From: Candidatus Fraserbacteria bacterium
GTDB taxonomy: Bacteria; Bipolaricaulota; Bipolaricaulia; RBG-16-55-9; DRXL01
Length of the DNA stretch: 64,000 nt
Reading direction: 5' to 3'
NCBI GenBank assembly: GCA_037440025.1
Contig: JBBIUX010000004.1
Coordinates: 4,290-68,289 of the forward strand
Shown here: positions 61 to 15,718 of the stretch, piece by piece
Numbering within the stretch: the stretch's first letter is position 1
How the letters are laid out: the number at the start of each line of letters is the position of its first letter
Made by a program: the position numbers and the translations under genes
Notes under the pieces: model-generated
Told to the model about the DNA's origin: nothing
The model's input: the letters and a program-made list of their open reading frames with translations, nothing else
Database searches by the model: none

Positions 61-1332
61 CTACGCATACAGCCCCCTCGCTCGCGCCGCCGTCGCTACG
101 CGATCTACAGCGACCATGTACGAAGCTGTCCGTAAATCTGTCCTCTCTCGCTGAGCCATCTCCCAGACGCGCTCAAAAGCGTTCACCATAAACCGCCGCA
201 GGCGCTTGTCCACCCGTTCAGGGCTCCAGAAGTAAAAAGCCCGATCTTGCACCCATTCAAAATACGAAACCGTGACTCCGCCGGCGTTGGCTAAAATATC
301 GGGCACAACCAAAATTCCTCGGTCGTACAAGATACGGTCGGCTTCGAGAGTGATCGGACCGTTGGCCAGCTCAATGATTGTCTTGGCTCTGATCTGTGAA
401 GCATTTGCTTTGGTGATCTGGTTTTCTATCGCTGCCGGGACCAAAATGTCGCACTCCAGTTCTAGAAGTTCTTGATTGGTGATGGGCTCAGTGTTCTTAA
501 ATCTCACAACTGAACCGGTCTTGCGCTCATGCTCTTTGAGCGCCACCGGCTCGATTCCATCAGGGCTATACACACCGCCTTTGGCATCGCTGATGGCGAT
601 AATCCTCGCGCCGCCTTCAGCACAGAAGCGCGCCATGTTCGAGCCGACGTTGCCAAAACCCTGAATGGCGATCCGTGCCCCCTCGAGCTTCATGTTGAGG
701 CGTTTGAGTGTCTCCAGGAGCACAAAATAGCCGCCCCGGCCGGTCGCCGTGTCGCGTCCTTCCGACCCGCCTAACACTTTGGGCTTGCCCGTGACTAGCC
801 CTGGCATGAACATGCTGTTGTGGTGCATGCTAATAGTATCAACAAACCAGGCCATCTCGCGCTCCCCGGTGAAGACATCTGGGGCGAGAATGTCTACATC
901 AGGGCCGATAATGGGCGAGATCTCTGCCGCATACCGTCGGGTGATGCGCTCCAGCTCGCCGGTGGAAAGCTCTAACGGGTTGCAGCGCACGCCGCCCTTG
1001 GCCCCGCCAAAGGGAATCTGAGCTACAGAACATTTCCAGGTCATCAAAATGGCAAGCGCTTCGACCTCTTTTAACGTAATATCGGGGTGATAGCGAATGC
1101 CGCCCTTGGTCGGCCCCAGCACCAAATGGTGCTGCACGCGAAAGCCCTCAAAATGCTGCACGCTCCCGTCGTCCATCACCACGGGGAAGACGACGATGAG
1201 CTTGCGCTTGGGGTAGCGTAACAGAGTCCGCAAGGAGTCTTCTAACTTCAGGCGGTTTGCCGCTTCATCAAAGAAGTAATGAGCTGTCTCCAACACGCCA
1301 ATCTCGGACTTGCGTTTGAGTTCCTCGGACAT
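61..1332 (-). CDS. Glutamate dehydrogenase (Glu/Leu/Phe/Val dehydrogenase family), paralog 1. True start is probably MSEELKRK at 1332. The upstream part of the listed ORF (to 1386) is read through a palindromic repeat.
   Basis: The ORF has the GPTKGGIRYHPD and GGAKGG motifs and a Rossmann NAD(P) motif (GFGNVGS). It is about 70% identical in eye-alignment to ORF 55062..56339. The N-terminal MKGGMGEGRGGGRGEV stretch is encoded by repeat copy R1. Confidence 0.88.
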   Translation of the reverse strand: MSEELKRKSEIGVLETAHYFFDEAANRLKLEDSLRTLLRYPKRKLIVVFPVVMDDGSVQHFEGFRVQHHLVLGPTKGGIRYHPDITLKEVEALAILMTWKCSVAQIPFGGAKGGVRCNPLELSTGELERITRRYAAEISPIIGPDVDILAPDVFTGEREMAWFVDTISMHHNSMFMPGLVTGKPKVLGGSEGRDTATGRGGYFVLLETLKRLNMKLEGARIAIQGFGNVGSNMARFCAEGGARIIAISDAKGGVYSPDGIEPVALKEHERKTGSVVRFKNTEPITNQELLELECDILVPAAIENQITKANASQIRAKTIIELANGPITLEADRILYDRGILVVPDILANAGGVTVSYFEWVQDRAFYFWSPERVDKRLRRFMVNAFERVWEMAQRERTDLRTASYMVAVDRVATAARARGLYA

Positions 1333-1354
1333 GGATAAAACCTCTCCTCTGCCC

Positions 1355-1440
1355 CCTCCCCGACCCTCACCCATCCCTCCCTTCAAGGGAGAGGGTGCAG
1401 GGGGAGGGTTCCCCTTCCCTTTAGAGAAAGGGACTGAGGA
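1355..1440. repeat. Palindromic GC-rich element, copy R1, in the intergenic region between lon and gdh. Made of tandem hairpins of the CCCTCCCTT..GGGAGAGGG and CCCTTCCCTTTAGAGAAAGGGA type.
   Basis: Sequence similarity to the R5 and R7 copies on the opposite strand. Hairpin-forming inverted repeats are seen directly. Confidence 0.6.
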
Positions 1441-1441
1441 G

Positions 1442-3856
1442 TTAGGTCTTCTCTCCCTCCTCTTCTTTGGTTAAGTTTAGATTCTTCTGAATCTCGCGCA
1501 GCCGTGCTTCAACACGAGCGTAGATCGTCCCTTCCGGAAATTTTCCCTCAGGGGTTCGTTCACCTGCTTGGAGCCCTGTAAGCAATTCGAGCCCCTCTTC
1601 GACAGTCTTGACAGCGTAAATATGAAATTGGCCTCGTTTGACCGCATCAATGACCTCTGGGCGAAGCATCAGGTTATCTATATTCTGCTCAGGGATGATG
1701 ACCCCCTGCTGGCCTGTCAGCCCCTGCATTTTGCAGATCTTAAAAAATCCGTCAATCTTCTCGTTGACGCTGCCGATGGGCTGAATTTCGCCCTTCTGAT
1801 TGACCGAGCCGGTCACGGCTAAGTCTTGCTTGAGGGGGACATCGGCCAGTGCTGAGATGAGCGCGTACAGTTCCGTGCTTGAGGCCGAATCGCCGTCTAT
1901 TTTCGAGTAGCTCTGCTCAAACGTGATACTAGCCGAGAGACTGAGCGGCTGGGCTTGCGCGAATTTTTCACCGAGCCAGCCCTTCAAAATCAAGACGCCC
2001 TTGCTGTGAATTTTCCCCGACAGTTCGGCCTCGCGCTCCACGTTGAGCACACCTTCTTTGCCCGTAAACACGTTGGCTGTGATGCGCGTGGGGCGACCAA
2101 AAGAGAAATCAGGCAATTGCAGGACAGAGAGTCCGTTCACACAGCCGACGCGCTCCCCCTGGGTGTCTACGAGGATATCGCCGCGGATGATGAGCTCGTG
2201 AATCTTCTCTTCAATGAGGCTATTGCGATAGAGCTTTTCTTCGATAGCTTTTTCGATATGTTCGGCTTTGACCAGGCGTGCCCCTTCGCGCTCGACCCAG
2301 TAGGACGCTTCGCGAACGATGGTCATCAAGTCGCTGAAGCGCGCCGAAAGTTTTTTCTGATCGCCCGTCACTTCGGCGGCGTACTCGGCCAGCCGCGCCA
2401 GGGCTGCTCTGTGAAAATGCTTGAGCCCCGGGCGCTCTTTGACGCGCGCCGCCACAAACGGGCCCAGCTGCTTAATATATCTCTCGTTCCATTCCATCTC
2501 ATCATCGAAGTCAGCCTTCACCGCGAACAATTTTTGGAAATCTTCGTCCACCGCCTCTAAGAGATAGTACAGATCGGGGCTGCCGATGAGAATGACCTTC
2601 ACAGACAAGGGCACCGGTTCAGGCTTCAAGCCTTCCGTAGTGGTAAATCCCATCATCGTTGCGGGGTCTTCGATCTGGATGCGCCCGCAGCGGACGGCGA
2701 TCTTGAGCGCTTCCCAGCTGATCCAGTACTTTAATAAATTGTCGGCGTTCAGTACCAAATAGCCGCCGTTGGCCTCGTGAAGCGAGCCGGGCTTGATCAT
2801 GGTAAAGTCCGCGGTCATCACACCGAACTGCACTCTTCGTTCGATCTTGCCAAAAAGATTTGTGTACGTGGCGTTCTCTTGCACCACGACTGGCGCGCCT
2901 TTGGTCCTGCTGTGGTCTACTAGGACGTTGATCGTGTATCGTCTGAAGAGATCAATCATCCCCGTGGGCAGGGGCACCCCTTGCCCTTCACCCTCTTGGC
3001 TCTCTTTCGAAGGCTCAGAGAACTCCTTGATGTTCTGCAGAATATCAGCTTCGACGTCTTCAAGAAATTCGAGAACACGAGAATAATTGTTGTAGCGGGT
3101 CTGCAATCTCTTTATCAAAGGCTTGACGGTGTAGAGTGCAATATCTCTGTCGAGTTCACCAATTGCTCTCAAGCGTTGTTCTTCGATTTGTTCGAGCTGG
3201 CTCATGGCCTCTTGTACAATCTCTTGCAGCTCTTCACGGTGGCGCGCAATTCTCTGGCGATCTCGCTCCGGCAGGTTGGCAAACGCTTCTTCGGTGAGCG
3301 GCTTGCCGTCGAGCAACGGCGTAGCTTGAAATCCCAGCACCGAGAGCTGAAAGAGAAACCCCCGACGTCGTGCCTCTTGGTCGACGGTGCTGGAGACTTT
3401 ATTGCGCAGCTCATTGAACTGCTCGTCGATGCTTTGGCGTTTTTTTCGGTATTCTTCGCTATGGTACGCTGCCGGGATGCGCTCGCGCAGTTTCTCGATC
3501 AAGTACTCCATGTCGCCGGCCAGCTTGCGCCCCAGCCCCTGAGGCAGAAGAACATAGCGCGGGCAGTAGGGGTCATCGAAGTTATGCACATAGCACAGAT
3601 CAGACGGGGGCGGCTCTTTGAGGCTGATTTTTTTCAGAAAAGCTTGAACGATGGAGTTCTTTCCGGTGCCTGGGCTGCCGGCCACATAGATATTGTAGCG
3701 AAAATCTTTGATGCCTAAGCCCAAATCAAGCGCGCGTACAGCGCGTTCCTGACCGATGACATCGTCCAGGGGCTCGCACTCGGTCGTGGTCTCGATCTCG
3801 AAGACCTTTGGGTCACAACGGCGGCGTAGCTCCTCAGGCTGCAAACGGCGTGCCAT
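1442..3856 (-). CDS. Lon-like ATP-dependent protease: an N-terminal AAA+ domain plus a C-terminal Lon S16 proteolytic domain (COG1067/LonB-like family).
   Basis: Walker A motif VAGSPGTGKNS. C-terminal Lon_C-like region with a Ser-Lys dyad context (DGDSASSTELYALISA ... KIDGFFKICK). Length is about 800 aa. Confidence 0.8.
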   Translation of the reverse strand: MARRLQPEELRRRCDPKVFEIETTTECEPLDDVIGQERAVRALDLGLGIKDFRYNIYVAGSPGTGKNSIVQAFLKKISLKEPPPSDLCYVHNFDDPYCPRYVLLPQGLGRKLAGDMEYLIEKLRERIPAAYHSEEYRKKRQSIDEQFNELRNKVSSTVDQEARRRGFLFQLSVLGFQATPLLDGKPLTEEAFANLPERDRQRIARHREELQEIVQEAMSQLEQIEEQRLRAIGELDRDIALYTVKPLIKRLQTRYNNYSRVLEFLEDVEADILQNIKEFSEPSKESQEGEGQGVPLPTGMIDLFRRYTINVLVDHSRTKGAPVVVQENATYTNLFGKIERRVQFGVMTADFTMIKPGSLHEANGGYLVLNADNLLKYWISWEALKIAVRCGRIQIEDPATMMGFTTTEGLKPEPVPLSVKVILIGSPDLYYLLEAVDEDFQKLFAVKADFDDEMEWNERYIKQLGPFVAARVKERPGLKHFHRAALARLAEYAAEVTGDQKKLSARFSDLMTIVREASYWVEREGARLVKAEHIEKAIEEKLYRNSLIEEKIHELIIRGDILVDTQGERVGCVNGLSVLQLPDFSFGRPTRITANVFTGKEGVLNVEREAELSGKIHSKGVLILKGWLGEKFAQAQPLSLSASITFEQSYSKIDGDSASSTELYALISALADVPLKQDLAVTGSVNQKGEIQPIGSVNEKIDGFFKICKMQGLTGQQGVIIPEQNIDNLMLRPEVIDAVKRGQFHIYAVKTVEEGLELLTGLQAGERTPEGKFPEGTIYARVEARLREIQKNLNLTKEEEGEKT

Positions 3857-3944
3857 CCAGTCTCCTTCACCGTGGGATATTCAGGTTTTTCTAGAATACA
3901 CAATCCCGCTGGGAAGAGCAAGCTGGCTGAATCGGGGGCTCCCG

Positions 3945-4664
3945 CTAGAAGACGCGGATCTCGGCATCTCCCACAACGGGCACGGAGAAGCGCGGGGAGA
4001 AACTGGTCAGTTGGCCGCTCAGTTTGAATAGGCCGGCCGGTGTGCCGGGCGGCACAATCACCTCGTAGACAACAGTCAGTGTCTGTCCGGCCTGGAGCCG
4101 TTGGGCCCAGAGCCATTGCAGCTCGGCCTTTTTGAAAAGTGCTCCAGCGTTCTGGCTCTCGCGTGCTGTCCAGCCCGAGGGGGGGTCTTCATCGAGTCCT
4201 AGGCCGTTGATGGCTTTATTGATGCGCAAGTGGACGGTGACCCGGACCGTTTGCCCTGTGGTGACTTGGCCTCCTGGTGGCAGGGTGATCTGGCGTCGCG
4301 TGGTTACAGCTGATTCAGCAATCCTTACGATCTTGCTGATGGAGCCTGTCGCGCCGCGGTTATCTGTGACTCGTAAGTTAATGCGCCAATCGCCGGCACG
4401 ATCAAAGAGCCGGGTGGTCGTCGGGGTTGTCTTCACTTCATCGAAGCGGCCATCGCCGTTGAAATCCCACTCGTATTTGACGATGGAGCCGTCGGGGTCT
4501 TTTGAGCTTGAGGCGTCGAAGAGCACGGGTGTATTTGTATCGGGATTGGTTGGGGTTGTCCGAAAATCGGCGCGGGGCGAGGCGTTGCTTTGCGCTTCTG
4601 CTGGGGAAAGCGCCAGCATTCCCACGGCTGCCAGAAGTGACAGAGCTTTTACAAAGGTTCTCAT
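3945..4664 (-). CDS. Secreted PKD-domain protein with a signal peptide. Start set at MRTFVKAL, which has an AGGAGG RBS 7 nt upstream.
   Basis: Signal peptide MRTFVKALSLLAAVGMLALSPAEA. PKD signature VKYEWDFNGDGRFDE. The C-terminal domain carries the GLGLDED..W..FK..W..Y.V.VP pattern shared with neighbouring genes. Confidence 0.7.
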   Translation of the reverse strand: MRTFVKALSLLAAVGMLALSPAEAQSNASPRADFRTTPTNPDTNTPVLFDASSSKDPDGSIVKYEWDFNGDGRFDEVKTTPTTTRLFDRAGDWRINLRVTDNRGATGSISKIVRIAESAVTTRRQITLPPGGQVTTGQTVRVTVHLRINKAINGLGLDEDPPSGWTARESQNAGALFKKAELQWLWAQRLQAGQTLTVVYEVIVPPGTPAGLFKLSGQLTSFSPRFSVPVVGDAEIRVF

Positions 4665-4689
4665 CGCACAGACCTCCTTCTTCACTCAA

Positions 4690-4754
4690 GGCCCTCACCC
4701 CGGCTGTGCCACCCCTCTCCCGTCTAGACGGGAGAGGGGTTGGGGGTGAGGGCC
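4690..4754. repeat. Palindromic element copy R2, intergenic. Outer stem GGCCCTCACCC/GGGTGAGGGCC, inner stem CCCCTCTCCCGTC/GACGGGAGAGGGG.
   Basis: Perfect nested inverted repeats read directly from the sequence. Confidence 0.8.
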
Positions 4755-4758
4755 GGTT

Positions 4759-6648
4759 TTACGGCAGCGGCCCGAAGACCGATGCTCCCGTGAGCCAATA
4801 GGCGACCAACGTCTGCAGAGTTTTTAGGTCAATCTTGCCGAAATCCACTCCGCCAGCTTGTTTGCTGGTCACGGATTTGTCTGCCAACCAGAAGAAAGAG
4901 ACAGCAACCTGAATTTGATCAAAACTGATAGTGTTCGTATCGAGCCACAGGTTCACTCTGGGATTGGCGGCATCGCTGACGTCCATGCGGGCGAAGACCA
5001 CGGGCCACGGCAGCTTAGTATTAATAACTTTGATCTCCGTCTCTCCCGTGATGGCCATCTCAAAATTGGGCGATGCACTGCTGATATTGCCACTGAGTTT
5101 GATCACTTGGGGCCCCATATTATCAGGGAGGATCAATTCGTATTCGATGGTGCGCACCGTGCCGGCCTCCAGGGCTTCTAAGAAGACCCACAGGGCTTCT
5201 TTGATTTCGCCGGCCTCTTTAGGCTCCCGCGGGATCCCGCTGTCACCAGCGACGGCCTTGAACTGTAACCCCCTGGGGAAACGCTCCATGACGACCAGGC
5301 CGTTCACACGGTCTATAGTACGAATAGTCAGCGTCACCTTGACGCGCTCCCCAGCGATGGTCTCATCATTGGGCAGGTTGGTGTCAATCGTGCGCGTCGC
5401 GATGGCCCGGGGGGTGAAGACCCGCACGGACTTCGTTGCGCTCGCCTTCTCGCCGTCCGTGTCGGTGACGGTGAGAGTTACAGTGTAGGTCCCATCAGCG
5501 CTGTAGCGATGGATCGGGCTCTGTTCGGCCGAGCGCGCCCCGTCGCCAAAATCCCACTCCCAGGAAACGATTCCTACGTCGTCGGTCGAACGATCTATAA
5601 ACGTGACAGGAGTATTAGCCGCCGGATCGGCAGGCAAGATATCGAAATTGGCCGTCGGCGGACGGTTGCGGTCACGCGTGACCAATGGAATCGGAGCGAT
5701 CCCCGGCGTGACCAACCGACCGCGCGAGTCCAGATAACTGAAAAGAGGCTTCAGTGAAGCCGTTCCCGTTTGTGAGCCGCCGACGGTAAAGCTGGCCTCC
5801 CAGACGTCGCCGGCGAGCAGGCTCTCTAGTTCCCAGACGATGGTCGTCGAACCATCAGGGTTTTTCGTCACGCGGTTGGGGGCATTGAACGTGGCAACCC
5901 CATAATTAAGAAGAGCGGGCAACGAGAGAGTGATCTTGATCTGGCGTGCCACGGTCTTCTTTCCCAAGGCTTTGGCGATCTCTTGAGAGACGGTGTCATC
6001 GAATTTTTCAAAGAACTGCCCTTGAGTGAGCCGGGCCAGCTCGCGCAGAAGAGTTTTATCCGGGTTGCGCCCGATGGCAACAGTGAAAATCACGACACCG
6101 CTCTCAGCGGAGCGTTGGGCCTGCGCAAGCGGCGTGCGCCCGATGTTGTAACGTCCATCGCTGACCAGCACCATAGCCCAGGACGCTTCTTCACGACCAT
6201 TCAAAATCAGGGTGTCGAGGGCTTTGCCCAACCCTTCGCCGACGGCCGTCTTCCCTATGGGGCGGAGTAGCTTCAGCCCTTGGCGCACGGCCTCATGGTC
6301 GAACGTCAAGGGCACGTCCACACGGGCATCGGTGCTGAACGAGACCAGCCCGACACGATCTTGCGGGGAGAGGGCCTCAACGATGGCTGAGCCGATCTTT
6401 TGCATCTCTGGGATATTGACGGTCGCTGAACGATCAATCACGAGAAAGAGATCTGTCGGGGCGCGCTCACCTTCCGGCCCGGAAGAGAGACGCAACGTGA
6501 GCGTGGCTTCTTGGTTGACAAAGATTGCCGGTGGAGAGATGTTCACAGTGAGCTGCACGGTAGGTGAAACTACTTGAGAATGCGCTGTCAGCCATCCCAG
6601 ACAGATCAAGCTCGCTGTGAGGGTGCTCAGGCGTTTCAATCTGGTCAT
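4759..6648 (-). CDS. Secreted vWA-domain plus PKD-domain protein with a dockerin-like C-terminal module. Start at MTRLKR (GGAGG RBS). The longer listed ORF reads into repeat R3.
   Basis: Signal peptide present. vWA/MIDAS-like LFLVIDRSATV..VGLVSFSTD..LVSDGRYN. PKD signature SWEWDFGDGARS...YTVTLTVTDTDGE. C-terminal tandem segments DTNTISFDQIQVAVSFFWL and VDFGKIDLKTLQTLVAYWL. Confidence 0.75.
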   Translation of the reverse strand: MTRLKRLSTLTASLICLGWLTAHSQVVSPTVQLTVNISPPAIFVNQEATLTLRLSSGPEGERAPTDLFLVIDRSATVNIPEMQKIGSAIVEALSPQDRVGLVSFSTDARVDVPLTFDHEAVRQGLKLLRPIGKTAVGEGLGKALDTLILNGREEASWAMVLVSDGRYNIGRTPLAQAQRSAESGVVIFTVAIGRNPDKTLLRELARLTQGQFFEKFDDTVSQEIAKALGKKTVARQIKITLSLPALLNYGVATFNAPNRVTKNPDGSTTIVWELESLLAGDVWEASFTVGGSQTGTASLKPLFSYLDSRGRLVTPGIAPIPLVTRDRNRPPTANFDILPADPAANTPVTFIDRSTDDVGIVSWEWDFGDGARSAEQSPIHRYSADGTYTVTLTVTDTDGEKASATKSVRVFTPRAIATRTIDTNLPNDETIAGERVKVTLTIRTIDRVNGLVVMERFPRGLQFKAVAGDSGIPREPKEAGEIKEALWVFLEALEAGTVRTIEYELILPDNMGPQVIKLSGNISSASPNFEMAITGETEIKVINTKLPWPVVFARMDVSDAANPRVNLWLDTNTISFDQIQVAVSFFWLADKSVTSKQAGGVDFGKIDLKTLQTLVAYWLTGASVFGPLP

Positions 6649-6662
6649 ATCGTTCCTCCCTT

Positions 6663-6783
6663 GGCCCTCACCCCGCCGCACCCCTCTCCCGTCTTTACGG
6701 ACGGGAGAGGGGCCGGGGCGAAGCGTTTTGGTGCAGCATTTTTTCAGAAAGCGGTCGCACCAAAACGCTTCGGGGTGAGGGCC
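6663..6783. repeat. Palindromic element copy R3, a compound nested copy of about 120 bp with an extra internal hairpin GAAGCGTTTTGGTGC...GCACCAAAACGCTTC.
   Basis: Outer stem GGCCCTCACCCCG/CGGGGTGAGGGCC and two internal perfect stems, read directly. Confidence 0.8.
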
Positions 6784-6795
6784 TTCTCTCCCGTT

Positions 6796-8931
6796 CTACC
6801 GCGTCGCCGCGGGCAACGGCTGATCTACGGGTGTATCCGTAAGCCAATACGAGATGAGTATTTGCAACATTCTAAAATCTATAGTCTTCCCGCAGGTGCC
6901 GACAACCTCTTCGTCTTCTAACCAGAGGGCGATGGCCGTCTGGATCTGCGCAAAACTGATCTTGTTTGAGAGCGCGACGTCAATGGTGTTCTGCTCAACA
7001 TTGAGGTGCGAGATGGCCACCGGAATGTCGAGGCACTCCACGACGTTCAATAATTGATCTTTGCCAACCTCGATCTGGAAGTTGGGCGAGAAGGACTCGA
7101 TCAAGCCTTGAATCACATACTGACTGATGATCTCGTCCATGGGAACGACGACTTCATAGATGACGCTGCGGCGAGAACCGGCGGGAATCTTCTCCGTGAA
7201 GATCCACGTGTTCGCCAATTGCTTGAAGGCGGCGCTGCTGCCTTCTAAAGGCTTCACTTCCCAGCGTTCGGGCAATTTTTCCGTCAGGGCCAAGCCAAAG
7301 AGATCTTTTTCGGCATGCACTTCGACCTTCACACGGAAGATATTCCCGCCTGGGGTGCGCAAATACACTTGGAAGAACGGGAGCGGCGCTAAGATCGAGC
7401 GCAGGGCTGAACCGCTGACCGAGGTATCTTCTTCGATGGTCCGATCTACGGGCACGTTCGCCAAGTGATGGGCGACTAGTTGTTTCAGCGATTGCAGGTC
7501 GAGTGGGGCCTCGCACGTCCCCGGCACCGCAGTATCCTCTTGCCAGAAGGCGATTCCACGTTGCATTTGGTCAAACGTGACATCCTCCGGCAAGCGCAGA
7601 TTGACAGTATCCGTTGCCGTATCCAAATGTGCCAACGCGACGAGAGGGGGCAAACAGGTCACGATGGAAATTCGTGAGTAGGATTCGTTGGTCTCTCCCA
7701 AGACGGGAATCTCTTTGATGTCCGGCACGGTGCTCGACACACGCCCGACGATGTCAAAATCTTGAGGCAGCGGGCCGCCGATCAATTGATCGGTCTTAGG
7801 GATGGTCACATCGTAGACGATGCGGCGGGTCTCGCCGCTGCGCACGATCGTGGGAAAGACCCATTGGGTTTGGGCGACTTTGAACGTTGCGCCGGCGCTG
7901 TCAATGGGGGTGACCTCCCAGTTCGCCGGTAGGTCTTCGTCCAAGCCAAGGCCGCTCATGGAAGTTCTCACAGTAATCGTCACGGTCACTCTAAAGGTCG
8001 TCCCTAGGGCAGCATGAGTCGTCGTGACCACGCGCCGGGCGAAAGCCACTTCTTTTTCGACGGTGATCGTTTTCGTGATCTGCGCGATGGCGCCCTTATC
8101 GTCGGTGACGCGCAGGGTGACTTTCACTTCGCCGATCTGGGTGAACGTGTGCTGCACTGTTGGTTTATCCGTAGAGATTTCGAAAATGTTGTCTGCATTA
8201 AAATCCCATTCGTACTTGACGATCTTGCCGTCGGCGACCGTGCTGGCACGAGCATCAAAAGTCACCGGCACGTTGATGCTCACCACTGATGGGGAGAACG
8301 TAAAGTCTGCTTTCGGGGGCGCTCGGCGGAAGGCGCTCAGCACTAAGGGCTCGACGGGGCTGGGCAGCTGAAATCTCTCGGGATTGACGGGATTACCGCT
8401 GAGCACCTGCCAGCCGTCAATGCCTCGGATAAATGTCGGGGTTATGGTGATCTCGAACTCATCGGGCAGCCCACTGATGACGACTCCGTCGGCGCGCTCG
8501 GCCAGCCAGCGCCAGGTCATCGTGGCTGTCGGCGGGGTGAACTCATACGTATCTGCCGGGTCGTCGCGCAAGGTAATTTGCGCTGTCGGGGGGAGACCGT
8601 CGAAGCGCAAGGTCGCCTCGCCGCCAGCAGGGTTGCCCGGCTTACTTAAGATAATAACTAAGCTCAGATCACGGGTGTTTTGATCTCGATAGAGAAAGAC
8701 CAGCGCCTGGTTGTCTATTTCTAAGCCGGTGTTCGGTTGATCGTTGGCGAAGCGATAGAACTCCACGGCCGATCCCGGTTGGGTCAGCGGGGTGATCGGC
8801 GTAGAAAACGCTCCTTGACGCGCGAGGAAGAAAGATGGCGTTTGCTCAGAAACTACCCCTTGGCCTGATCCTGTTACAGCGATCAATGCCAGCACCAAGA
8901 GCCCAGAGAGAACTTGCCGAATGACACGCAT
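6796..8931 (-). CDS. Secreted 711-aa PKD-domain protein with two 'GLGLDED' domains and two dockerin-like modules, one internal and one C-terminal.
   Basis: Signal peptide MRVIRQVLSGLLVLALIAVTGSG. PKD signature KYEWDFNADNIF...VKVTLRVTDDKGA. Repeated GLGLDEDLPANWEV.. and GLALTEKLPERWEV.. domains. Module copies ..ISFAQIQTAIALWL..KTIDFRMLQILISYWL and VTFDQMQRGIAFW..LDLQSLKQLVAHHL. Confidence 0.7.
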   Translation of the reverse strand: MRVIRQVLSGLLVLALIAVTGSGQGVVSEQTPSFFLARQGAFSTPITPLTQPGSAVEFYRFANDQPNTGLEIDNQALVFLYRDQNTRDLSLVIILSKPGNPAGGEATLRFDGLPPTAQITLRDDPADTYEFTPPTATMTWRWLAERADGVVISGLPDEFEITITPTFIRGIDGWQVLSGNPVNPERFQLPSPVEPLVLSAFRRAPPKADFTFSPSVVSINVPVTFDARASTVADGKIVKYEWDFNADNIFEISTDKPTVQHTFTQIGEVKVTLRVTDDKGAIAQITKTITVEKEVAFARRVVTTTHAALGTTFRVTVTITVRTSMSGLGLDEDLPANWEVTPIDSAGATFKVAQTQWVFPTIVRSGETRRIVYDVTIPKTDQLIGGPLPQDFDIVGRVSSTVPDIKEIPVLGETNESYSRISIVTCLPPLVALAHLDTATDTVNLRLPEDVTFDQMQRGIAFWQEDTAVPGTCEAPLDLQSLKQLVAHHLANVPVDRTIEEDTSVSGSALRSILAPLPFFQVYLRTPGGNIFRVKVEVHAEKDLFGLALTEKLPERWEVKPLEGSSAAFKQLANTWIFTEKIPAGSRRSVIYEVVVPMDEIISQYVIQGLIESFSPNFQIEVGKDQLLNVVECLDIPVAISHLNVEQNTIDVALSNKISFAQIQTAIALWLEDEEVVGTCGKTIDFRMLQILISYWLTDTPVDQPLPAATR

Positions 8932-9542: not shown

Positions 9543-10175
9543 CTACATGCGTGCCGCAGGACAACGAGCGTCTGGAGCATCTGAGTCTGATGGCAGCGCT
9601 GTGATGATCTGGGGGCACGCGCCCAACAGGGCACACTCCGACTCGATGAAGTCCTTCAATTCAGTTGCTAGCTTCGTATAGAATTCCAGCTGGCTCTCTC
9701 GTATGAGCGTCTCGGCGAAGAGTTTGACCCAGCGCCCCAAGTGGGCTTCTAAGAACTTCTTCTGCGCGTCGCGACAGATCTCGGCTTGCTCTAAAAGATT
9801 ATTCTGAAGAGCCAGCGCTTCTTTGTACGCTAAAACGCTCATGAACTCCAGCTCCAAAGCCAGATGGTCCGGGCGCTCGTTCACGGAGAGTTCTAGCCCG
9901 AACGCCCTATAGAACCCCATAATATCTGCAAGCGTCGGCCCCTGCGAGACGGCGCGATTTCTGTCGTACTCGACTTCGTAGATCGGGCAGAGCACAGTCG
10001 TGCGATGGCTGAAAAGACGGTCGTATTCTAACCCCTCCCCGACACGGTCTTTCGGCCGCCAAAAGCCCCGCGCCAGCCCTGCATAGCGGCGGCTGCGCTC
10101 AAGGGCCAACTCGAAGTCGTTCACACTTCTCACCCGATCTCCGGCTCGCGAGGCCGTGGATGATAGAGCATCCAA
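9543..10175 (-). CDS. TorD/NarJ/DmsD-family redox-enzyme maturation chaperone, the delta subunit of the type II DMSO reductase family operon.
   Basis: PDHLALELEFMSVLAYKE motif typical of the TorD family. Position is immediately downstream of the alpha-beta-gamma genes. It overlaps the gamma gene. Confidence 0.6.
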   Translation of the reverse strand: MDALSSTASRAGDRVRSVNDFELALERSRRYAGLARGFWRPKDRVGEGLEYDRLFSHRTTVLCPIYEVEYDRNRAVSQGPTLADIMGFYRAFGLELSVNERPDHLALELEFMSVLAYKEALALQNNLLEQAEICRDAQKKFLEAHLGRWVKLFAETLIRESQLEFYTKLATELKDFIESECALLGACPQIITALPSDSDAPDARCPAARM

Positions 10176-11122
10176 ACCAAAATCGCGCCGAAGAGCAGCC
10201 CCAGTACCCCGATCACAACTGCCACCCAGCCGGGCACCCCGATCACGCGCACGCTCTCCTGCGCCGTCGCCGGAGATGGCGTTCCTGTTGCTCCTGCGGG
10301 CAATGCTTCGAGCGTCAGCTCATGCCAATTGAGCGAGACGGACTTACTCGCGCCGCGCTCCCCACTGGAGCCGTCCCACACAGCGAAATTCACAAAGCCC
10401 TTCTGTCCGGCCTCGAAGCTCGCATCACCCCTCAGCCCCGTGTGCAGCGCCCGCACGAAGACGACCCTCCAGCGTCCGTTCTCCCACATCCCCTTCCCCA
10501 AGACATGCTGCAGCTCTTGGTGCGTGAGCGTACCGAAGCCCTGAGCTATTAAGTTTTCGACAGGGGTCTGATGGTCTCGTTGCGAGCGCCAGTTGCCCAC
10601 ATCTCGCCCGACGTAAATCCCATAGGGGACTTCACTAGCATAGGGCGGATAGGTGCGATCAACGTCGGCGAGGCCGCCCTCGTCTATGTCGCGCTGCCAC
10701 GCCGCCTGCCATTGCCAGATATTCACAGCGTTCTGAGCATCCCCCATGAATGGGCTGGGATTGGCCTTCGGGTCAACGGGGAACTGCACAGCGACAGCGT
10801 CGCTGAATCTATCTGTTTGAGCAAGCTCTTGGTCTTGAATAGGATCAGCCCATTCTACAAGAAACGCGATCAGTCTGCCGTTGTGCAGGGCTCGCACGTG
10901 GAGCTCTTTGATTGCGCCGCCGCCGAAGGGCTTTGTCATCTGTTGCGGGCTGAGAGCAATCGTCACGGGCCGGACTTCGTTCCAAATCTGAGCCGTCGGG
11001 TCCGGGAGGAGCTCTTGATCAGTAAACTTCACCGTGAGCTTAACGGCCTGAGCTTGGGCCATCAAGCTTGGTAGAACAACCAGCAAGACTATCCATACTC
11101 TGCGCATGAGAGGCTCCTTCAT
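10130..11122 (-). CDS. Heme-b gamma subunit of a type II DMSO reductase family enzyme (EbdC/NxrC/DdhC-like EB_dh domain), with a signal peptide and a C-terminal transmembrane anchor.
   Basis: Signal peptide MRRVWIVLLVVLPSLMAQAQA. EB_dh-like motifs GAIKELHVRALHNG..AFLVEWAD..FSDAVAVQFP..NIWQW. C-terminal hydrophobic helix VPGWVAVVIGVLGLLFGAILVWML. Confidence 0.7.
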   Translation of the reverse strand: MKEPLMRRVWIVLLVVLPSLMAQAQAVKLTVKFTDQELLPDPTAQIWNEVRPVTIALSPQQMTKPFGGGAIKELHVRALHNGRLIAFLVEWADPIQDQELAQTDRFSDAVAVQFPVDPKANPSPFMGDAQNAVNIWQWQAAWQRDIDEGGLADVDRTYPPYASEVPYGIYVGRDVGNWRSQRDHQTPVENLIAQGFGTLTHQELQHVLGKGMWENGRWRVVFVRALHTGLRGDASFEAGQKGFVNFAVWDGSSGERGASKSVSLNWHELTLEALPAGATGTPSPATAQESVRVIGVPGWVAVVIGVLGLLFGAILVWMLYHPRPREPEIG

Positions 11123-12261
11123 GGCGTGTTGTGTCGCACGGCTTGATGCTCTCGGTCTTCGAAGGGCCGGATGTAGATAGGCTCTTGAATGGGCACCCGG
11201 ACGATCTCTGCACCCTTGGCATCGTAGCCGAACGCATAGCCATCGGCGACTTTGAATCGTTCAATCCAGCGCGGCGTCGCGCCAAAAAGCGTCAGACAGC
11301 CCAACAGCTGCTCGTCGTCTTTGAGATTTTTATAGAGATTGATGGCGTGCTCGACGTTGGGGCTGAACATCTGTTTCAAATAATCTAAGGGGACATGCAC
11401 CGGCGGGATATAGTAAATATTGGGCTCCAACCCTGTCTGGGGATAGAGAGGCAACGCGATCTTTTTGATGTGCACCAGAAAGTCTATGGGCTTTTCGGGA
11501 TCAGCTTTCTCCGGCGGGCTGATCCAGCCGTTCAGTCTTATTTTCCCAATGCACGTCGTGACACACTGGGTTTGGAAGCCCTGCTCGACTAACGGGTAGC
11601 ACCCGATGCACTTCTCGCTCACGCGCGTCACGGCGTTATAAAGAACTTTTTTATACGGGCACGCGCGCATACACTCCCGATACCCTCGGCAGCGCGATTG
11701 GTCTACAAGCACAACGCCGTCTTCTTCGCGTTTATAGATCGCTTTGCGCGGACACGCTGCTAAGCACGCCGGGTAGGTGCAATGATTGCAAATTCGGGCG
11801 AGATAGAAGCACCAAATTTTATGGGGCAGACTGAAAAAGTCGCCCTTCTCGACGGTGCCAGCGGGCTCGTCCTCTCCGATGTTGGGATGGGCCCAATCTA
11901 AATCATCGGGGAGATACCCTTGCACGGTTTGGCCAGTCGGAGCAGCCTCGAAGATTGTCTTGCCCTGATATGTTTGTCCGGCCCATTTGTTCACGCCGAG
12001 CAGCGAAAGAATTTTTACATCCCAGCCCAAGGGATAGAAGCCATAGGGCTTGGTCTCAACGTTGTTCCAGAACATATACTCTTGGCCGCGACCGCTTGTC
12101 CACGTATGCTTACACGCCATGGTGCACGTCTGACACGCAATGCACTTATTGGTATCAAAGACAGCCGCGAACTGTCTCTTGGGTCGAGACTCTTCGTAGG
12201 GGTACTCCATCTGACGGTTGATCTGCCAGTTTGAGACTTTCGACATGCTCCCTCCTGTCAC
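11119..12261 (-). CDS. Fe-S beta subunit (NarH/NxrB/EbdB-like, four-cluster ferredoxin) of a type II DMSO reductase family enzyme.
   Basis: Cysteine motifs CIACQTCTMACK, CNHCTYPACLAACP, CRGYRECMRACPY and CIGCYP..CVTTC. The 4-bp overlaps with neighbouring genes indicate an operon. Confidence 0.85.
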   Translation of the reverse strand: MTGGSMSKVSNWQINRQMEYPYEESRPKRQFAAVFDTNKCIACQTCTMACKHTWTSGRGQEYMFWNNVETKPYGFYPLGWDVKILSLLGVNKWAGQTYQGKTIFEAAPTGQTVQGYLPDDLDWAHPNIGEDEPAGTVEKGDFFSLPHKIWCFYLARICNHCTYPACLAACPRKAIYKREEDGVVLVDQSRCRGYRECMRACPYKKVLYNAVTRVSEKCIGCYPLVEQGFQTQCVTTCIGKIRLNGWISPPEKADPEKPIDFLVHIKKIALPLYPQTGLEPNIYYIPPVHVPLDYLKQMFSPNVEHAINLYKNLKDDEQLLGCLTLFGATPRWIERFKVADGYAFGYDAKGAEIVRVPIQEPIYIRPFEDREHQAVRHNTP

Positions 12262-12265
12262 TATT

Positions 12266-15200
12266 TTATTGTTCGGCTTCGATGAACCCGCCTGCCAAGT
12301 ATTTTTTCATTTCTTCGTTTTCGTAGGTGGGCCGATAGCCCAACCGCGCCGGGCGCCAGAGGCTCTTCAAGTCGGCTCCGCCCGGCTCGGCCTTGGTGAT
12401 CTTGACAAAGGACTCTTTGGGCGCACCCACCGGACAGTGAATATCAGGCGCGAAGCCCTGCCCGATGCTCTGTCCAAAAACGTCTTTTCTGACTAACGAG
12501 TCTGTCATCAGGGGAGGGCGCAGCCAGGCGCGGGTGCAGCTCTGGTGGCCGCCGTAGCGAAACATCGCTTGGTAATTTGTCTCTGGGTTTTTGGCGAGAT
12601 GATCGGGCCGGGTCTCGTGAGCTTTCACAGTCCCATGCGTCGCTTGGTACATGTTGAACCACATTCGGACGACGCCGCGCGGCGTACCGTTATAATAGCG
12701 CGCTCTGCCCATCAGCCGCGCGATCTTATAGTCGGGATCGCCGGGCTTGGCCCCGCGATATGGACGGTCTTCTGGGTCGGCGTCAATCCAGATATAGTCA
12801 CCATCTTCAATGCCGAGTTCTTTGGCGTCTTGGGGGTTTATATCAGCGTAGACTTCGCCGACCCACGGGCTGCGCTTGTCTCTTCTGTAAATATCCCCGA
12901 AGGGCCCGAAATAGACGGCTAAGACGTCCAAATCTACCGGGGTCGTGTGTGCCCCATGACGATACTTGGGTGTGATGAAGATAAATTTGAGCCCGTCTTT
13001 GGCGCGCGGGTGTTGTGATCGCACGACTTCGTCAGGGGTCTTGATGACGTTGCGCACCTGGCGTGTCTCAGGACTCAAATCATCGCGCTTGAGCCCATAC
13101 TGTTCGGGAGGTGTGGGCTTGAGCGCCTCGTGTTTTTGTGGGCCGACGATCACATTGGGCTCGTGCGGCGTGGCGTCCACCGGCTCGCGATAGACCGGGA
13201 GATTCTCTCCGTGTTCAATAAATTCGTCCTCTTCGCGATAGAATTCTAATCGTCCGGTCTTGGTGTACCACGGTTTGGACTCTTGCGTCTGCTCCCAGCC
13301 CACGATCTTCGGATACGTTCTTAACAGCTTGAGCATCGGTGTGCCCTTCTTGGCTTGCTCTTCGAGCTCTGTGAACTGATACCCGCGCAGGGAGCTGCTC
13401 GCGTCGCAGATTCTCTGAAGATACACATCAACGCGATTCTCGCGCACGAAGTGCCAATAGTCTTTGAATCGCTGATCGCCTGTCAGTTCAGCGAGCTTTT
13501 CAGCGACCCCCGCGTAGGTCTCGATGTCGCTGCGGGTATCGAAAATTCTGGGCAAGGGCGTGCGGGGAAAGACCTGCACGAACGGATTGGTCACCGAGCC
13601 GCACATGTCAGGGTATTTCAGCTCACCCCACGAATCTACCCCAAAGACGACATCGGCGTACTCACACGACATCGTCCACCACCATTCGTTCACAATAATG
13701 GCTTCGATCTTAGGCAGCGTGTTGTGAATGACATCGTAGCCCCACTTGGAGTTGCCCAAGAGTGAATTACTATTGGCGAACCACATGAATTTAGTAGGTG
13801 TGGGGATATGAGTCTTGCCGGTGAAGAGCTTTTTGCCCACTCTCAGAGGCCGGTCCCCGTAGTTATAGTAATGGGCCGACTCGGCCTTGGCGTACGATTT
13901 TGTCTTGGCGGGCTTGGTCTGGTCCAGCTCGGTATTGAACGGGTCTTCGGCGACATATTGGGGCAGGCCGTTGAAGAGCGCCACTCTGTAATTCCCGGCG
14001 TAGCTGCCGGGGCTGCCCCCGAAGTGCCCAATATTTTTCGTGAGAGCTGCAATTAAGAAAAGCGCACGGTCTTTCAGATCAGCGTTAAAGAAATGGTTGG
14101 GCCCCATGCCGTGTGACAGGAGGGTCGAGGCTTTGTTCGCGGCAATCTGGCGGGCCAGATTGACGATGGCTTCGGATGGAGCCCAACTCACTTCGGAGAC
14201 TTTTTGAGGGGTGAACTCTTTCAAATACTCTTTGATGAGATCGAAGACGGGTCGAACTTTGATCTCTTTGCCATCGAGCATCTTGACGGTGAGTGTGCCT
14301 TCTAGGGCTAGATCGAGCCCGGTGAAAAATTCCCCGACGTGGTCGCGGGTAACGACCGCGGGTTTGTTCTTAACGGCGTCCCATACGACAAAATCTCCCC
14401 ACTCGGCGCGGGCTTTCTCGGAGATATACTGGACACCTTGAGTGACATTGGGGTTAGGCTTTTCATCGAACTTGAGCACCTTGACGTAGTTGCTGAGCTC
14501 GGCGGGCTGGTAGTCTTTGATGATCTCAGAGGCCCGCAGGAGTTTGAGCGTGTCCATGCGCACCAGCAGGGGCAAGTCCGTAAATGTCTTGACATACTCT
14601 TCGTCATAGAGTTTCTCGTTGATAATGAAAGAAGCGACACCGAGGGCGAGGGCGGCATCGGTCCCCGGCCGAATGATAATGACTTCGTCGGCTTTGTTGG
14701 AAGTGGCTTGGTACTCGGTCGCAATAGTGATGACTTTCGCGCCGCGCTGGCGGGCTTCGGTCAGCCAATGGGCGTCGGGCATCTTTGTGCAGATCCAGTT
14801 CATGCCCCAGAGCGTGATCAATTTGGCGTTCTCCGCGGTGAAGAGATCGAAGTCGACGGTCTGCTGGCCGGTGACCATCGGGTGTCCTGGGGGCAGGTCC
14901 GTGTGCCAGCTATAGTTGTCCCAGACACGGCCACCGAGCGCTTGCTTGGGGCTGACATTCCGAATATGCTGATCGAGCAAGGCGAGCATATTAGCGAATC
15001 TGGCCAGCCCGTAGATGCGCGTCGCACCCAAGAAGGGCATCCCGCCACGCGCTTTCACTGTTTGGGTGCCGGCTTCGTGTGTCGCTTCGATCATGGCCGG
15101 GTCGTAATTCTGCGCTTGCAGGCGTTTGGTCCCTTCGGGGCCGGAATACGTCTGAGCGATATTGAGTAGGGCTTGGGCGACCAGTCCATAAGCTTCATCA

Positions 15201-15718
15201 AACGAGAGCTTCAGCCAAGTATCTTGGCCGCGATTGAAGTACTCTTTCGGGGGTGCGCCCGTGCGTGGGTCTCGTGGGAAGCCCGCTTGCACCCAATCTG
15301 AAAAACCCTTGCGCACCCAGACGCCCTTCACCCGGCGATCCCCATAAAAACGTCGTCCGAGAGCGAGTCCCTTTTGGCAGCAGCGCGGCTCCCACCGCGC
15401 TGAGCTCTGGTTTCCATAAAGATCGCGTGCTTCGCTGTAGCCGTACGTCGGCCCGATGCGCACCACTACCCCGTTGCGCACATACGCCCTCAACAGACAG
15501 TTATGGGTGTCATTGGGAGCGCACAGAAACGGAAAAGAACTATCATAGCGAAACTGATCTCTATAGATCTTCTCCCAGTCGCGATCGGGATAGAACTGTA
15601 AGGGGTTTTGAATATCGGGAACGAACTGGAACCCTGACAGGCCCAAGGCGTCAGCAGCTAGAGCAACTCCGGTGACTGTTACGGTGGCTTTCAGAAAGCG
15701 TCGCCGCGAGACCTTCAT
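12266..15718 (-). CDS. Molybdopterin catalytic alpha subunit of a type II DMSO reductase family enzyme. It is Tat-exported and has a NarG/NxrA-like size.
   Basis: Twin-arginine signal [26 protein letters not shown]. Length is 1150 aa, in the NxrA/NarG size class and larger than EbdA/PcrA/SerA. Molybdopterin oxidoreductase architecture. It is followed by beta, gamma and delta genes. Confidence 0.8.

Follow-up and report, generated by a model that had tools for sequence, protein, structure and literature searches.

A rare, internally duplicated helical domain in secreted proteins of Candidatus Fraserbacteria, distinct from dockerins and possibly derived from EF-hands

We analysed 64 kb of DNA from a Candidatus Fraserbacteria genome (contig JBBIUX010000004.1), referred to below as the window, which was also the sole portion of the genome scanned for cohesin partners. 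Three adjacent genes on its minus strand, p2, p1 and p3, encode secreted proteins, and two of these proteins, p1 and p2, carry a small module at their C-termini, with a further copy inside p2 (Table 1). Our main finding is that this module represents a real, conserved and internally duplicated domain family, which is rare, extracytoplasmic and devoid of any fold neighbour in PDB. As to its function, we propose that it is a calcium-independent capping and interaction module of a surface-protein complex, a proposal that could equally turn out right or wrong. A previous reading of the DNA, made from the sequence alone, had noticed these C-termini and likened them to dockerins; the duplicated layout on which that comparison was built is genuine, but the dockerin identity itself did not hold up.

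A conserved and internally duplicated module

All six peptides singled out by the sequence-only reading are present in the translated minus-strand open reading frames (ORFs) of p1 and p2, and its placing of the module at the C-terminus of two secreted proteins, with an additional internal copy, is correct. Together they represent a single module, about 78 residues long, that occurs in three copies with 35-39% pairwise identity. The two segments described earlier do exist, but they do not make up the entire module: a short helix and a β-hairpin come first, and the module begins about 25 residues further upstream, at C-L-x-x-P-V-A-I-A-H-L-D. Likewise, the range assigned to the module (4759-7000) includes both C-terminal copies, but not the internal copy of p2. 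The two segments of about 20 residues are genuine internal duplicates, as had been supposed: the alignment of their profiles with hhalign resulted in a probability of 94% and an E-value of 1.3e-7, the halves (for example, LSNKISFAQIQTAIALWLEDEEVV and CGKTIDFRMLQILISYWLTDTPVD) being aligned in register, positions 2-24 against 2-24.

The module is strongly conserved. Full-length p2 has about 75 relatives at 31-100% identity, those with names coming from Candidatus Bipolaricaulota, Acetothermia or Fraserbacteria, and the module is present at both positions in all of them. An alignment of 86 copies of this long form yielded the consensus CLxxPVAIAHLDxxxxxIDLxLSNxIxxxQxQxAIxFWLEDxxVPGTCGxxIDxxxLKxLIAxxLxxxPVDxPLP, with one invariant Trp and near-invariant Cys5, Leu6, Ala11, Gln34, Ala38 and Cys52. 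The family hidden Markov model (HMM) recognises the three window copies with E-values of 5e-18 to 3e-38. They are also recovered by an HMM built only from otherwise unrelated proteins with a short form of the module (see below) and including no window sequence, the domain E-values being 2.7e-16 for the C-terminal copy of p2, 1.5e-8 for the internal one and 1.9e-5 for the copy of p1. A six-frame scan of the window with the short-form HMM produced nothing besides these three copies, all of which match the family signature x-Q-x-A-I-x-x-W ... V-P-x-T-x-G-x-x-I ... L-I-x-x-W, with an invariant Trp in each long helix. One could argue that there is no real feature and that the segments resemble each other merely as amphipathic helices do by chance; they are indeed short, and several weak matches of the large search were spurious repeat proteins (P0133, P0172 and P0237). 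However, with family HMM E-values on the order of 1e-18 to 1e-38, support from the independent HMM down to 2.7e-16, conservation across 73 p2 orthologues (31-91% identity) and a confident structure prediction, such an explanation is vanishingly improbable.

AlphaFold2 predicted the structure of the isolated module with high confidence (pLDDT 94.1, pTM 0.85). The model consists of a helix (residues 8-13), a β-hairpin (15-22), a second helix (32-43), a short bridged loop and a third helix (58-69). In the model of full-length p2 (pLDDT 90.1) the same elements appear twice, each time directly after a β-sandwich; the helices of the internal copy span residues 429-434, 453-465 and 479-491. The conserved Cys pair of p2-type copies probably forms a disulfide staple. 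A Foldseek search of the module model against viral structures (BFVD) returned nothing, and the search with the full-length p2 model found only generic immunoglobulin (Ig), MG-domain and integrin matches, uninformative with regard to either the module or the N-terminal domain of p2.

The family appears to have escaped previous description. No Pfam or NCBIfam model covers the module in p1, p2 or the short-form proteins, profile searches detected no sequence match in PDB, and a full-text search of the literature found no account of it. A word-indexed search with the three-copy alignment as a query returned a single fragment and was uninformative; a full-length query and an exhaustive HMM search were used instead. 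The latter revealed the rarity of the module, with 188 matches at E<=1e-3 among 1.84 billion representative proteins; domains were mapped in 146 newly returned proteins among the 150 matches listed. In nearly all long-form matches the module begins about 0-5 residues past the end of a β-sandwich resembling CARDB, NEW3 or DUF11, and HMM mapping places all three window copies directly after a CARDB/NEW3-like β-sandwich. The long form is frequently the last domain, as in many p1 relatives of the von Willebrand factor A (VWA) type, but it can be internal (for instance, in the Acetothermia S8 peptidase P0141), and the unit of sandwich and module recurs in two proteins of about 1130 residues with 4-5 module copies (P0126, P0129). 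In many p1-type proteins the chain that follows the module terminates exactly with P-L-P (...V-[FYH]-[ED]-P-L-P-stop; window 4762-4770), a conserved end that might serve for recognition or processing.

Weaker matches cover only profile positions 27-75 and define the short form, found in acidic secreted proteins that end in ...AVAGxDGxISLxEIQxAINWWAExxxVPDTGGETISLxxIQxLINAWAExxxVSC. Judging from the profile alignment of the long and the short form (hhalign probability 99.5%, E 3.5e-23), the two are clearly homologous, the long form having an additional β-hairpin insertion of about 10 residues. A scan of species-representative genomes located the short form in Halobacteria, namely Halogranum rubrum, Salinigranum spp. 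and Salinirubellus litoreus. In haloarchaeal proteins it sits at the extreme C-terminus, after PKD, Big_9/cadherin-like, malectin or PEGA domains. We also observed a module carrier of more than 1300 residues in Halogranum rubrum, a secreted protein with the short form near its N-terminus; its N-terminal domain was suspected of being a cohesin, which Pfam did not support. Five proteins (P0133, P0172, P0225, P0227 and P0237) were dismissed as family members, being unrelated repeat proteins that match a single helix. Three of them, the metagenomic P0172, P0237 and P0227, contain up to about 20 tandem repeats with a C-x-x-Q-x-x-[IV]-[DN]-x-A-F-x-x-W-[LV] helix that weakly resembles the first long helix of the module, and probably constitute a repeat family of their own.

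Relation to dockerins and EF-hands

The comparison with type I dockerins (PF00404, Dockerin_1; Clostridium thermocellum CelS, 1DAQ/2MTE) is easy to understand. Both are small extracytoplasmic helical modules of 60-80 residues, both consist of two tandem duplicated loop-and-helix segments (about 22 residues each), and both are often the last domain of secreted multidomain proteins. Moreover, in relatives of the window copies the first long helix can be preceded by a calcium loop of the EF-hand type. The differences, however, are considerable. The module signature (Q-x-A-I-x-x-W ... V-P-x-T-x-G ... L-I-x-x-W) is unrelated to that of dockerins. The module has a short helix before loop 1 and no linker helix, its loop 2 is never a calcium loop, and its long form adds a β-hairpin insertion and, in p2-type copies, a Cys pair. 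It is fused directly to a β-sandwich, may be internal or tandem, displays neither profile nor fold similarity to dockerins and has no known cohesin partner.

Profile searches, the check that the dockerin identity called for, spoke against it. Full-length p1 and p2 matched neither Dockerin_1 nor EF-hand models at E<=1, and none of the 86 long-form copies did so at E<=10. Only one of the 47 short-form copies matched Dockerin_1, at E 0.11. Searching PDB sequences with the module profile returned no dockerin, and hhalign of the module against dockerin alignments of two and three sequences (CelS 2MTE/1DAQ and CelD 1CLC, later joined by the dockerin of P0176) gave probabilities of 0.1-0.2%. True dockerins were detected normally next to the module: Dockerin_1 scored 4.3e-11 in P0176 and 1.3e-8 in the Halogranum rubrum gene upstream of the module gene, which means that module and dockerin are distinct, coexisting families. 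P0176 itself is a metagenomic protein of 1184 residues that combines Dockerin_1, a Cohesin domain (6.4e-11), PKD, ASH-like Ig domains, two modules and a type IX secretion CHU_C tail, while in Halogranum rubrum (locus L005, NZ_FOTC01000001.1) a large secreted protein ending in the dockerin (97-3276) lies directly upstream of the module carrier (3032-7390).

The calcium ligands expected of a dockerin are likewise incomplete in the window copies. The dockerin loop, D-x-[DN]-x-[DN]-G-x-x-[DN]-x-x-D, is found in neither segment. In loop 1, the C-terminal copy of p2 (DVALSNKISFAQ) has no ligand at position 3 and a Gln at position 12, the internal copy reads NLRLPEDVTFDQ, and in p1 the loop is one residue longer. 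Acidic ligands are missing from loop 2 (for example, VGTCGKTIDFRM) in every copy. Having failed on sequence match, calcium loops and fold, three defining features, membership in the dockerin family was rejected. It may still be asked whether the module is a true dockerin that diverged, its two calcium-binding segments docking proteins onto a cohesin scaffold encoded elsewhere in the genome. Its duplicated loop-and-helix segments and frequent C-terminal place on secreted multidomain proteins fit this idea, some homologues have canonical calcium-binding loops, one of them with a dockerin-style Asp at position 12 (P0240, DEDADGTIDDSD), and cohesin and dockerin domains occur in some module-bearing organisms (P0176, Halogranum). 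Yet the idea is very improbable in view of the Dockerin_1 and hhalign results given above, the absence of dockerin chains from the Foldseek matches of a model with pLDDT 94, the loop 2 that is never canonical, the window loops deprived of ligands 3 and 12, the different order of helices (short helix first, no linker helix), and the internal and tandem copies fused to β-sandwiches, unlike a terminal docking tag. Nor was a cohesin found in the window by Pfam searches of p1, p2 and p3 (at E<=1) and of ten other large ORFs, or by a phmmer search of the six-frame translation with a single cohesin as the query, a test of low sensitivity covering 64 kb only.

The suspected similarity to calcium-binding segments proved partly justified, albeit not in the window. 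At the site of the short D/N-rich loop, some short-form homologues have a canonical EF-hand loop followed by an exiting helix, and the window copies have a degenerate version of it. The loop register was established from the profile alignment of both forms together with in-register loops of homologues matching the PS00018 pattern. Six homologues (P0185, P0205, P0215, P0216, P0224 and P0240) match the pattern in register, accounting for 6 of the 10 matches among the 81,708 residues of the representative set; in P0224, for instance, the loop DRNGNGWIDTPEI is followed by QEAIEHW. Across the 47 short-form copies, Ile 8 and Glu 12 of the loop reach a conservation of at least 90%, and Asp 5, Ile 8 and Glu 12 are invariant in the nine closest haloarchaeal copies. 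EF-hand_6 matched 4 of these 47 copies (best E 8.2e-5) and EF-hand_7 also 4 (best E 1.3e-3), with bit scores, where shown, below the curated cut-offs; a true dockerin gives EF-hand matches of similar strength. The top PDB matches of the short-form profile, at sub-threshold E-values of 0.05-2, were sorcin, grancalcin, ALG-2 and troponin C, aligned at their EF-hand loops. None of the 86 long-form copies matched EF-hand models at E<=10.

Set against the EF-hand (EF-hand_6/EF-hand_7, PS00018, and EF1 of the penta-EF-hand proteins sorcin and grancalcin), the helix, 12-residue loop and exiting helix of the short form, which starts at about position 10, fit in register, and the loop A-V-A-G-x-D-G-x-I-x-x-x-E resembles that of sorcin EF1, AAVAGQDGQIDADE. 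In contrast, the second half of the module has neither an entering helix nor a calcium loop; the model, with its three helices, does not have the paired four-helix EF-hand fold. The window copies depart further, having Gln at position 12, no ligand at position 3 and the 10-residue hairpin just before the loop, and the module is extracytoplasmic and fused to a β-sandwich. Loop 1 of the C-terminal p2 copy retains the 12-residue length and has D, S, N, I and Q at positions 1, 5, 6, 8 and 12, respectively. Of these, D651, I658 and Q662 (p2 numbering) are invariant or nearly so among orthologues, and the exiting helix begins at loop position 10 in the AlphaFold2 model. In calmodulin, replacement of Glu with Gln at loop position 12 cripples calcium binding. 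With the ligands at positions 3 and 12 replaced, canonical calcium binding is not expected in the window copies, while loop 1 of many short-form copies would be able to bind calcium. Since canonical EF-hand loops occur in register in some short-form copies, we lean, if only slightly, towards an EF-hand ancestry of the family, parallel to dockerins rather than within them.

Two other sets of models touch the family or its surroundings. DUF3717 (PF12512) matches 25 of the 47 short-form copies over the first ~22 of its 68 model positions (best E 1.2e-6), but the match spans only the I-S-x-x-E-I-Q-x-A-I-N-x-W helix, the one bit score shown is 24.6 against a curated cut-off of 25, and long-form copies do not match at all; this is probably a single-helix similarity rather than domain homology. 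The CARDB, NPCBM-associated NEW3 and DUF11 models (PF07705, PF10633 and PF01345) match, weakly to moderately, the β-sandwich that precedes every long-form module, without any of them reaching into the module, and most members of these families, p3 among them, do not have it.

Possible roles of the module

Taken together, the alignments and models lead us to the following picture. The family core of about 60 residues comprises a short helix, loop 1, the helix x-Q-I-Q-x-A-I-x-x-W, loop 2 (V-P-x-T-x-G-x-x-I), the helix x-x-L-x-x-L-I-x-x-W and the tail P-V-D-x-P-L-P. In the long form of the window, a β-hairpin of about 10 residues is inserted before loop 1, and the whole unit is fused, with no linker, to the C-terminal end of a β-sandwich. 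The window copies could then be regarded as a calcium-independent "pseudo-EF-hand", in which the ligands have been replaced and a near-invariant Gln occupies position 12. Seated on the β-sandwich, the module might act both as a rigid cap and as a protein-protein contact surface, thereby helping p2, p1 and perhaps p3 to assemble on the cell envelope or to attach to it, a suggestion that comes from domain architecture. More generally, it may provide surface proteins with a capping and interaction surface for assembly or attachment.

Several observations weigh against this picture, with respect to both ancestry and role. Searched against 350,542 PDB chains, the module model obtained a best match of E 4.3 and TM 0.27, with no dockerin or EF-hand among the matches; the PDB set holds many dockerins (25 distinct dockerin sequences), although Foldseek performs poorly with helical domains of such small size. 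DSSP analysis of the model revealed no β-bridge between the two position-8 residues, which are paired in classical EF-hand pairs. Compared by hhalign with a thin, four-sequence EF-hand-pair profile of calmodulin and calcineurin B, the short form (2.4%, E 0.019) and the long form (0.6%, E 0.093) aligned in the right register but not significantly, and the dockerin control reached 41.7% and E 2.7e-4 in the same comparison. The disulfide is deduced from Cys conservation, and p1-type copies have no Cys pair. No binding partner of the module was identified, and its tight fusion to the β-sandwich is equally compatible with a purely structural role. Finally, neither p1 nor p3 accompanies the distant p2 orthologues (31-36% identity), in which both modules are nevertheless retained, which indicates that the role of the module is not solely the pairing of p1 with p2.

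A purely structural role would mean a helical cap that shields the hydrophobic C-terminal edge of the β-sandwich and spaces tandem domains in a stalk-like surface protein. In the long form only about 0-5 residues separate the module from the end of the sandwich, the combined unit is tandemly repeated, most conserved residues (Trp, Ala, Ile and Leu, together with the Cys pair and the Pro-x-Thr-x-Gly loop) are of a hydrophobic or structural kind, and the solitary p2 orthologues have kept both modules. Such a cap is nevertheless not needed by the sandwich, as p3 and many other proteins bear the same β-sandwich without the module. In addition, the short form follows quite different domains at the extreme C-terminus, which indicates an autonomous module, and the first long helix bears conserved polar residues (Q-x-Q, the near-invariant Gln) that hint at a functional surface. 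We therefore view a solely structural cap as rather unlikely, while leaving it an appreciable share of our belief. The case for an envelope anchor, similar in role to SLH domains, which would keep otherwise soluble secreted proteins on the cell by binding to a polymer of its surface or, in haloarchaea, to the S-layer, is a different one. The module is the last domain of many secreted proteins that have diverse passenger domains and no transmembrane or sorting-signal tail, its two invariant Trp residues might engage sugars by stacking, and p1-type proteins share the conserved ...PLP end. On the other hand, it is not similar to SLH, LysM, peptidoglycan (PG)-binding or any known anchoring domain, some carriers have a type IX secretion sorting domain of their own after the module (P0176, P0218), the internal p2 copy and the tandem copies are hard to square with a terminal anchor, and the invariant Trp residues would more likely be core residues of a helical domain of 60 residues. 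All this makes anchoring a doubtful explanation. Equally doubtful is a bolder scenario, according to which the family is a cohesin-independent docking domain that arose from an EF-hand, in parallel to dockerins, its calcium-binding short form tethering diverse haloarchaeal exoproteins to the cell surface and its disulfide-stapled, calcium-independent long form holding together a p2-p1-p3 complex in Bipolaricaulota.

Genes in the window and the wider meaning of the family

The coordinates of the three genes and of their domains are collected in Table 1. For p1, the ATG at 6648, which the sequence-only reading had chosen, is the likely start in preference to 6681. Both p1 and p2 have N-termini resembling signal peptides, and in p2 residues 1-30 are modelled with pLDDT below 50. 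The N-terminal β-sandwich domain of p2 is its best-conserved part, with an invariant acidic cluster (D123, D124, D127, D148 and G149) and invariant Y59 and W142. This cluster may be a metal or ligand site, and it is probably in this domain that the real function of p2 resides. In p3, Pfam detected PKD_4 (3.6e-16) and NPCBM_assoc (5.8e-6), and the β-sandwich HMM matched with E 1e-30; the module HMM found no match in p3, which ends straight after its β-sandwich.

Table 1. Features of the p2, p1 and p3 genes (window coordinates; aa, amino acid residues)
Feature	Position	Strand	Residues	Description
p2	6796..8931	-	711 aa	Signal peptide, N-terminal β-sandwich, PKD, 2x (CARDB/NEW3-like β-sandwich + module)
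p2 N-terminal β-sandwich domain	8332-8841	-	aa ~31-200	No Pfam or NCBIfam model
p2 PKD domain		-	aa ~205-292	Sole Pfam family matched in p2
p2 first CARDB/NEW3/DUF11-like β-sandwich	7660..8046	-	aa ~296-424	Weak Pfam DUF11 and bMG10, AlphaFold2 strands, HMM mapping
Module copy 2, internal in p2	7432..7656	-	aa 426-500	CLPPLVALAHLDTATDTVNLRLPEDVTFDQMQRGIAFWQEDTAVPGTCEAPLDLQSLKQLVAHHLANVPVDRTIE
p2 second CARDB/NEW3/DUF11-like β-sandwich	7039..7419	-	aa ~505-631	AlphaFold2 β-strands, HMM mapping
Module copy 3, p2 C-terminal	6799..7035	-	aa 633-711	CLDIPVAISHLNVEQNTIDVALSNKISFAQIQTAIALWLEDEEVVGTCGKTIDFRMLQILISYWLTDTPVDQPLPAATR
Copy 3 degenerate loop of EF-hand length	6946..6981	-	aa 651-662 of p2	DVALSNKISFAQ
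p1	4759..6681	-	640-aa ORF	Signal peptide, VWA (aa 77-230), PKD (aa 339-420), β-sandwich, module
p1 CARDB/NEW3-like β-sandwich	5023..5406	-		HMM mapping; directly before module copy 1
Module copy 1, p1 C-terminal	4762..5016	-	aa 556-640	KLPWPVVFARMDVSDAANPRVNLWLDTNTISFDQIQVAVSFFWLADKSVTSKQAGGVDFGKIDLKTLQTLVAYWLTGASVFGPLP; no Cys pair; module HMM E 5e-18
p3	3945..4685	-	246 aa	Third gene of the cluster; secreted; PKD + NEW3-like β-sandwich (3951-4295)

In a relative with 47% identity (locus L001), which has other flanking genes, p2 is likewise followed by a p1-like gene (VWA-PKD) and then by a p3-like gene encoding a small PKD protein. Upstream of p2 lies a four-gene minus-strand cluster (9543-15718) for a periplasmic molybdoenzyme of the type II DMSO-reductase family (nitrite-oxidoreductase/ethylbenzene-dehydrogenase type). 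It encodes a catalytic subunit of 1150 residues with a twin-arginine signal, a Cys-rich, presumably iron-sulfur subunit of 380 residues, an EB_dh haem subunit of 330 residues with a C-terminal membrane helix, and a NarJ-like chaperone. A link between the module genes and this cluster was rejected, since each of the three relatives examined has different flanking genes; the molybdoenzyme is therefore unrelated to p2-p1-p3. Downstream, on the same strand, are genes that by the look of their translations encode a Lon-like ATP-dependent protease (1442-3856, 804 residues) and glutamate dehydrogenase (61-1386, 441 residues). A second secreted VWA protein with two PKD domains (37236-39530, minus strand, 764 residues) has neither the CARDB-like β-sandwich nor the module. 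Finally, a protein of 1189 residues encoded at 59161-62730 on the plus strand starts with an LptF/LptG lipopolysaccharide-export permease domain (first ~366 residues, E 8e-81), its remaining ~820 residues having no Pfam match. This protein is relevant to the question of whether the organism is diderm; lipopolysaccharide genes have been reported absent from another Acetothermia genome (Hao et al. 2018, PMC6092417).

These results do not reveal a new cellulosome-like system. Any functional significance of the module is at this stage speculative. If our interpretation is correct, a new domain family, with neither a Pfam/NCBIfam model nor a PDB fold neighbour, would be added to the known extracytoplasmic modules, and it would join dockerins as the second case in which an EF-hand-like motif has been put to extracellular use. 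The family spans two domains of life, occurring in Bipolaricaulota/Acetothermia/Fraserbacteria, in some proteins with type IX secretion sorting domains, and in haloarchaea. A profile of the module would allow better labelling of about 200 protein clusters now annotated as "PKD domain-containing" or "hypothetical". For Bipolaricaulota, the envelope of which is poorly understood (PMC6092417), the module marks a surface protein of about 710 residues that is conserved across much of the phylum.

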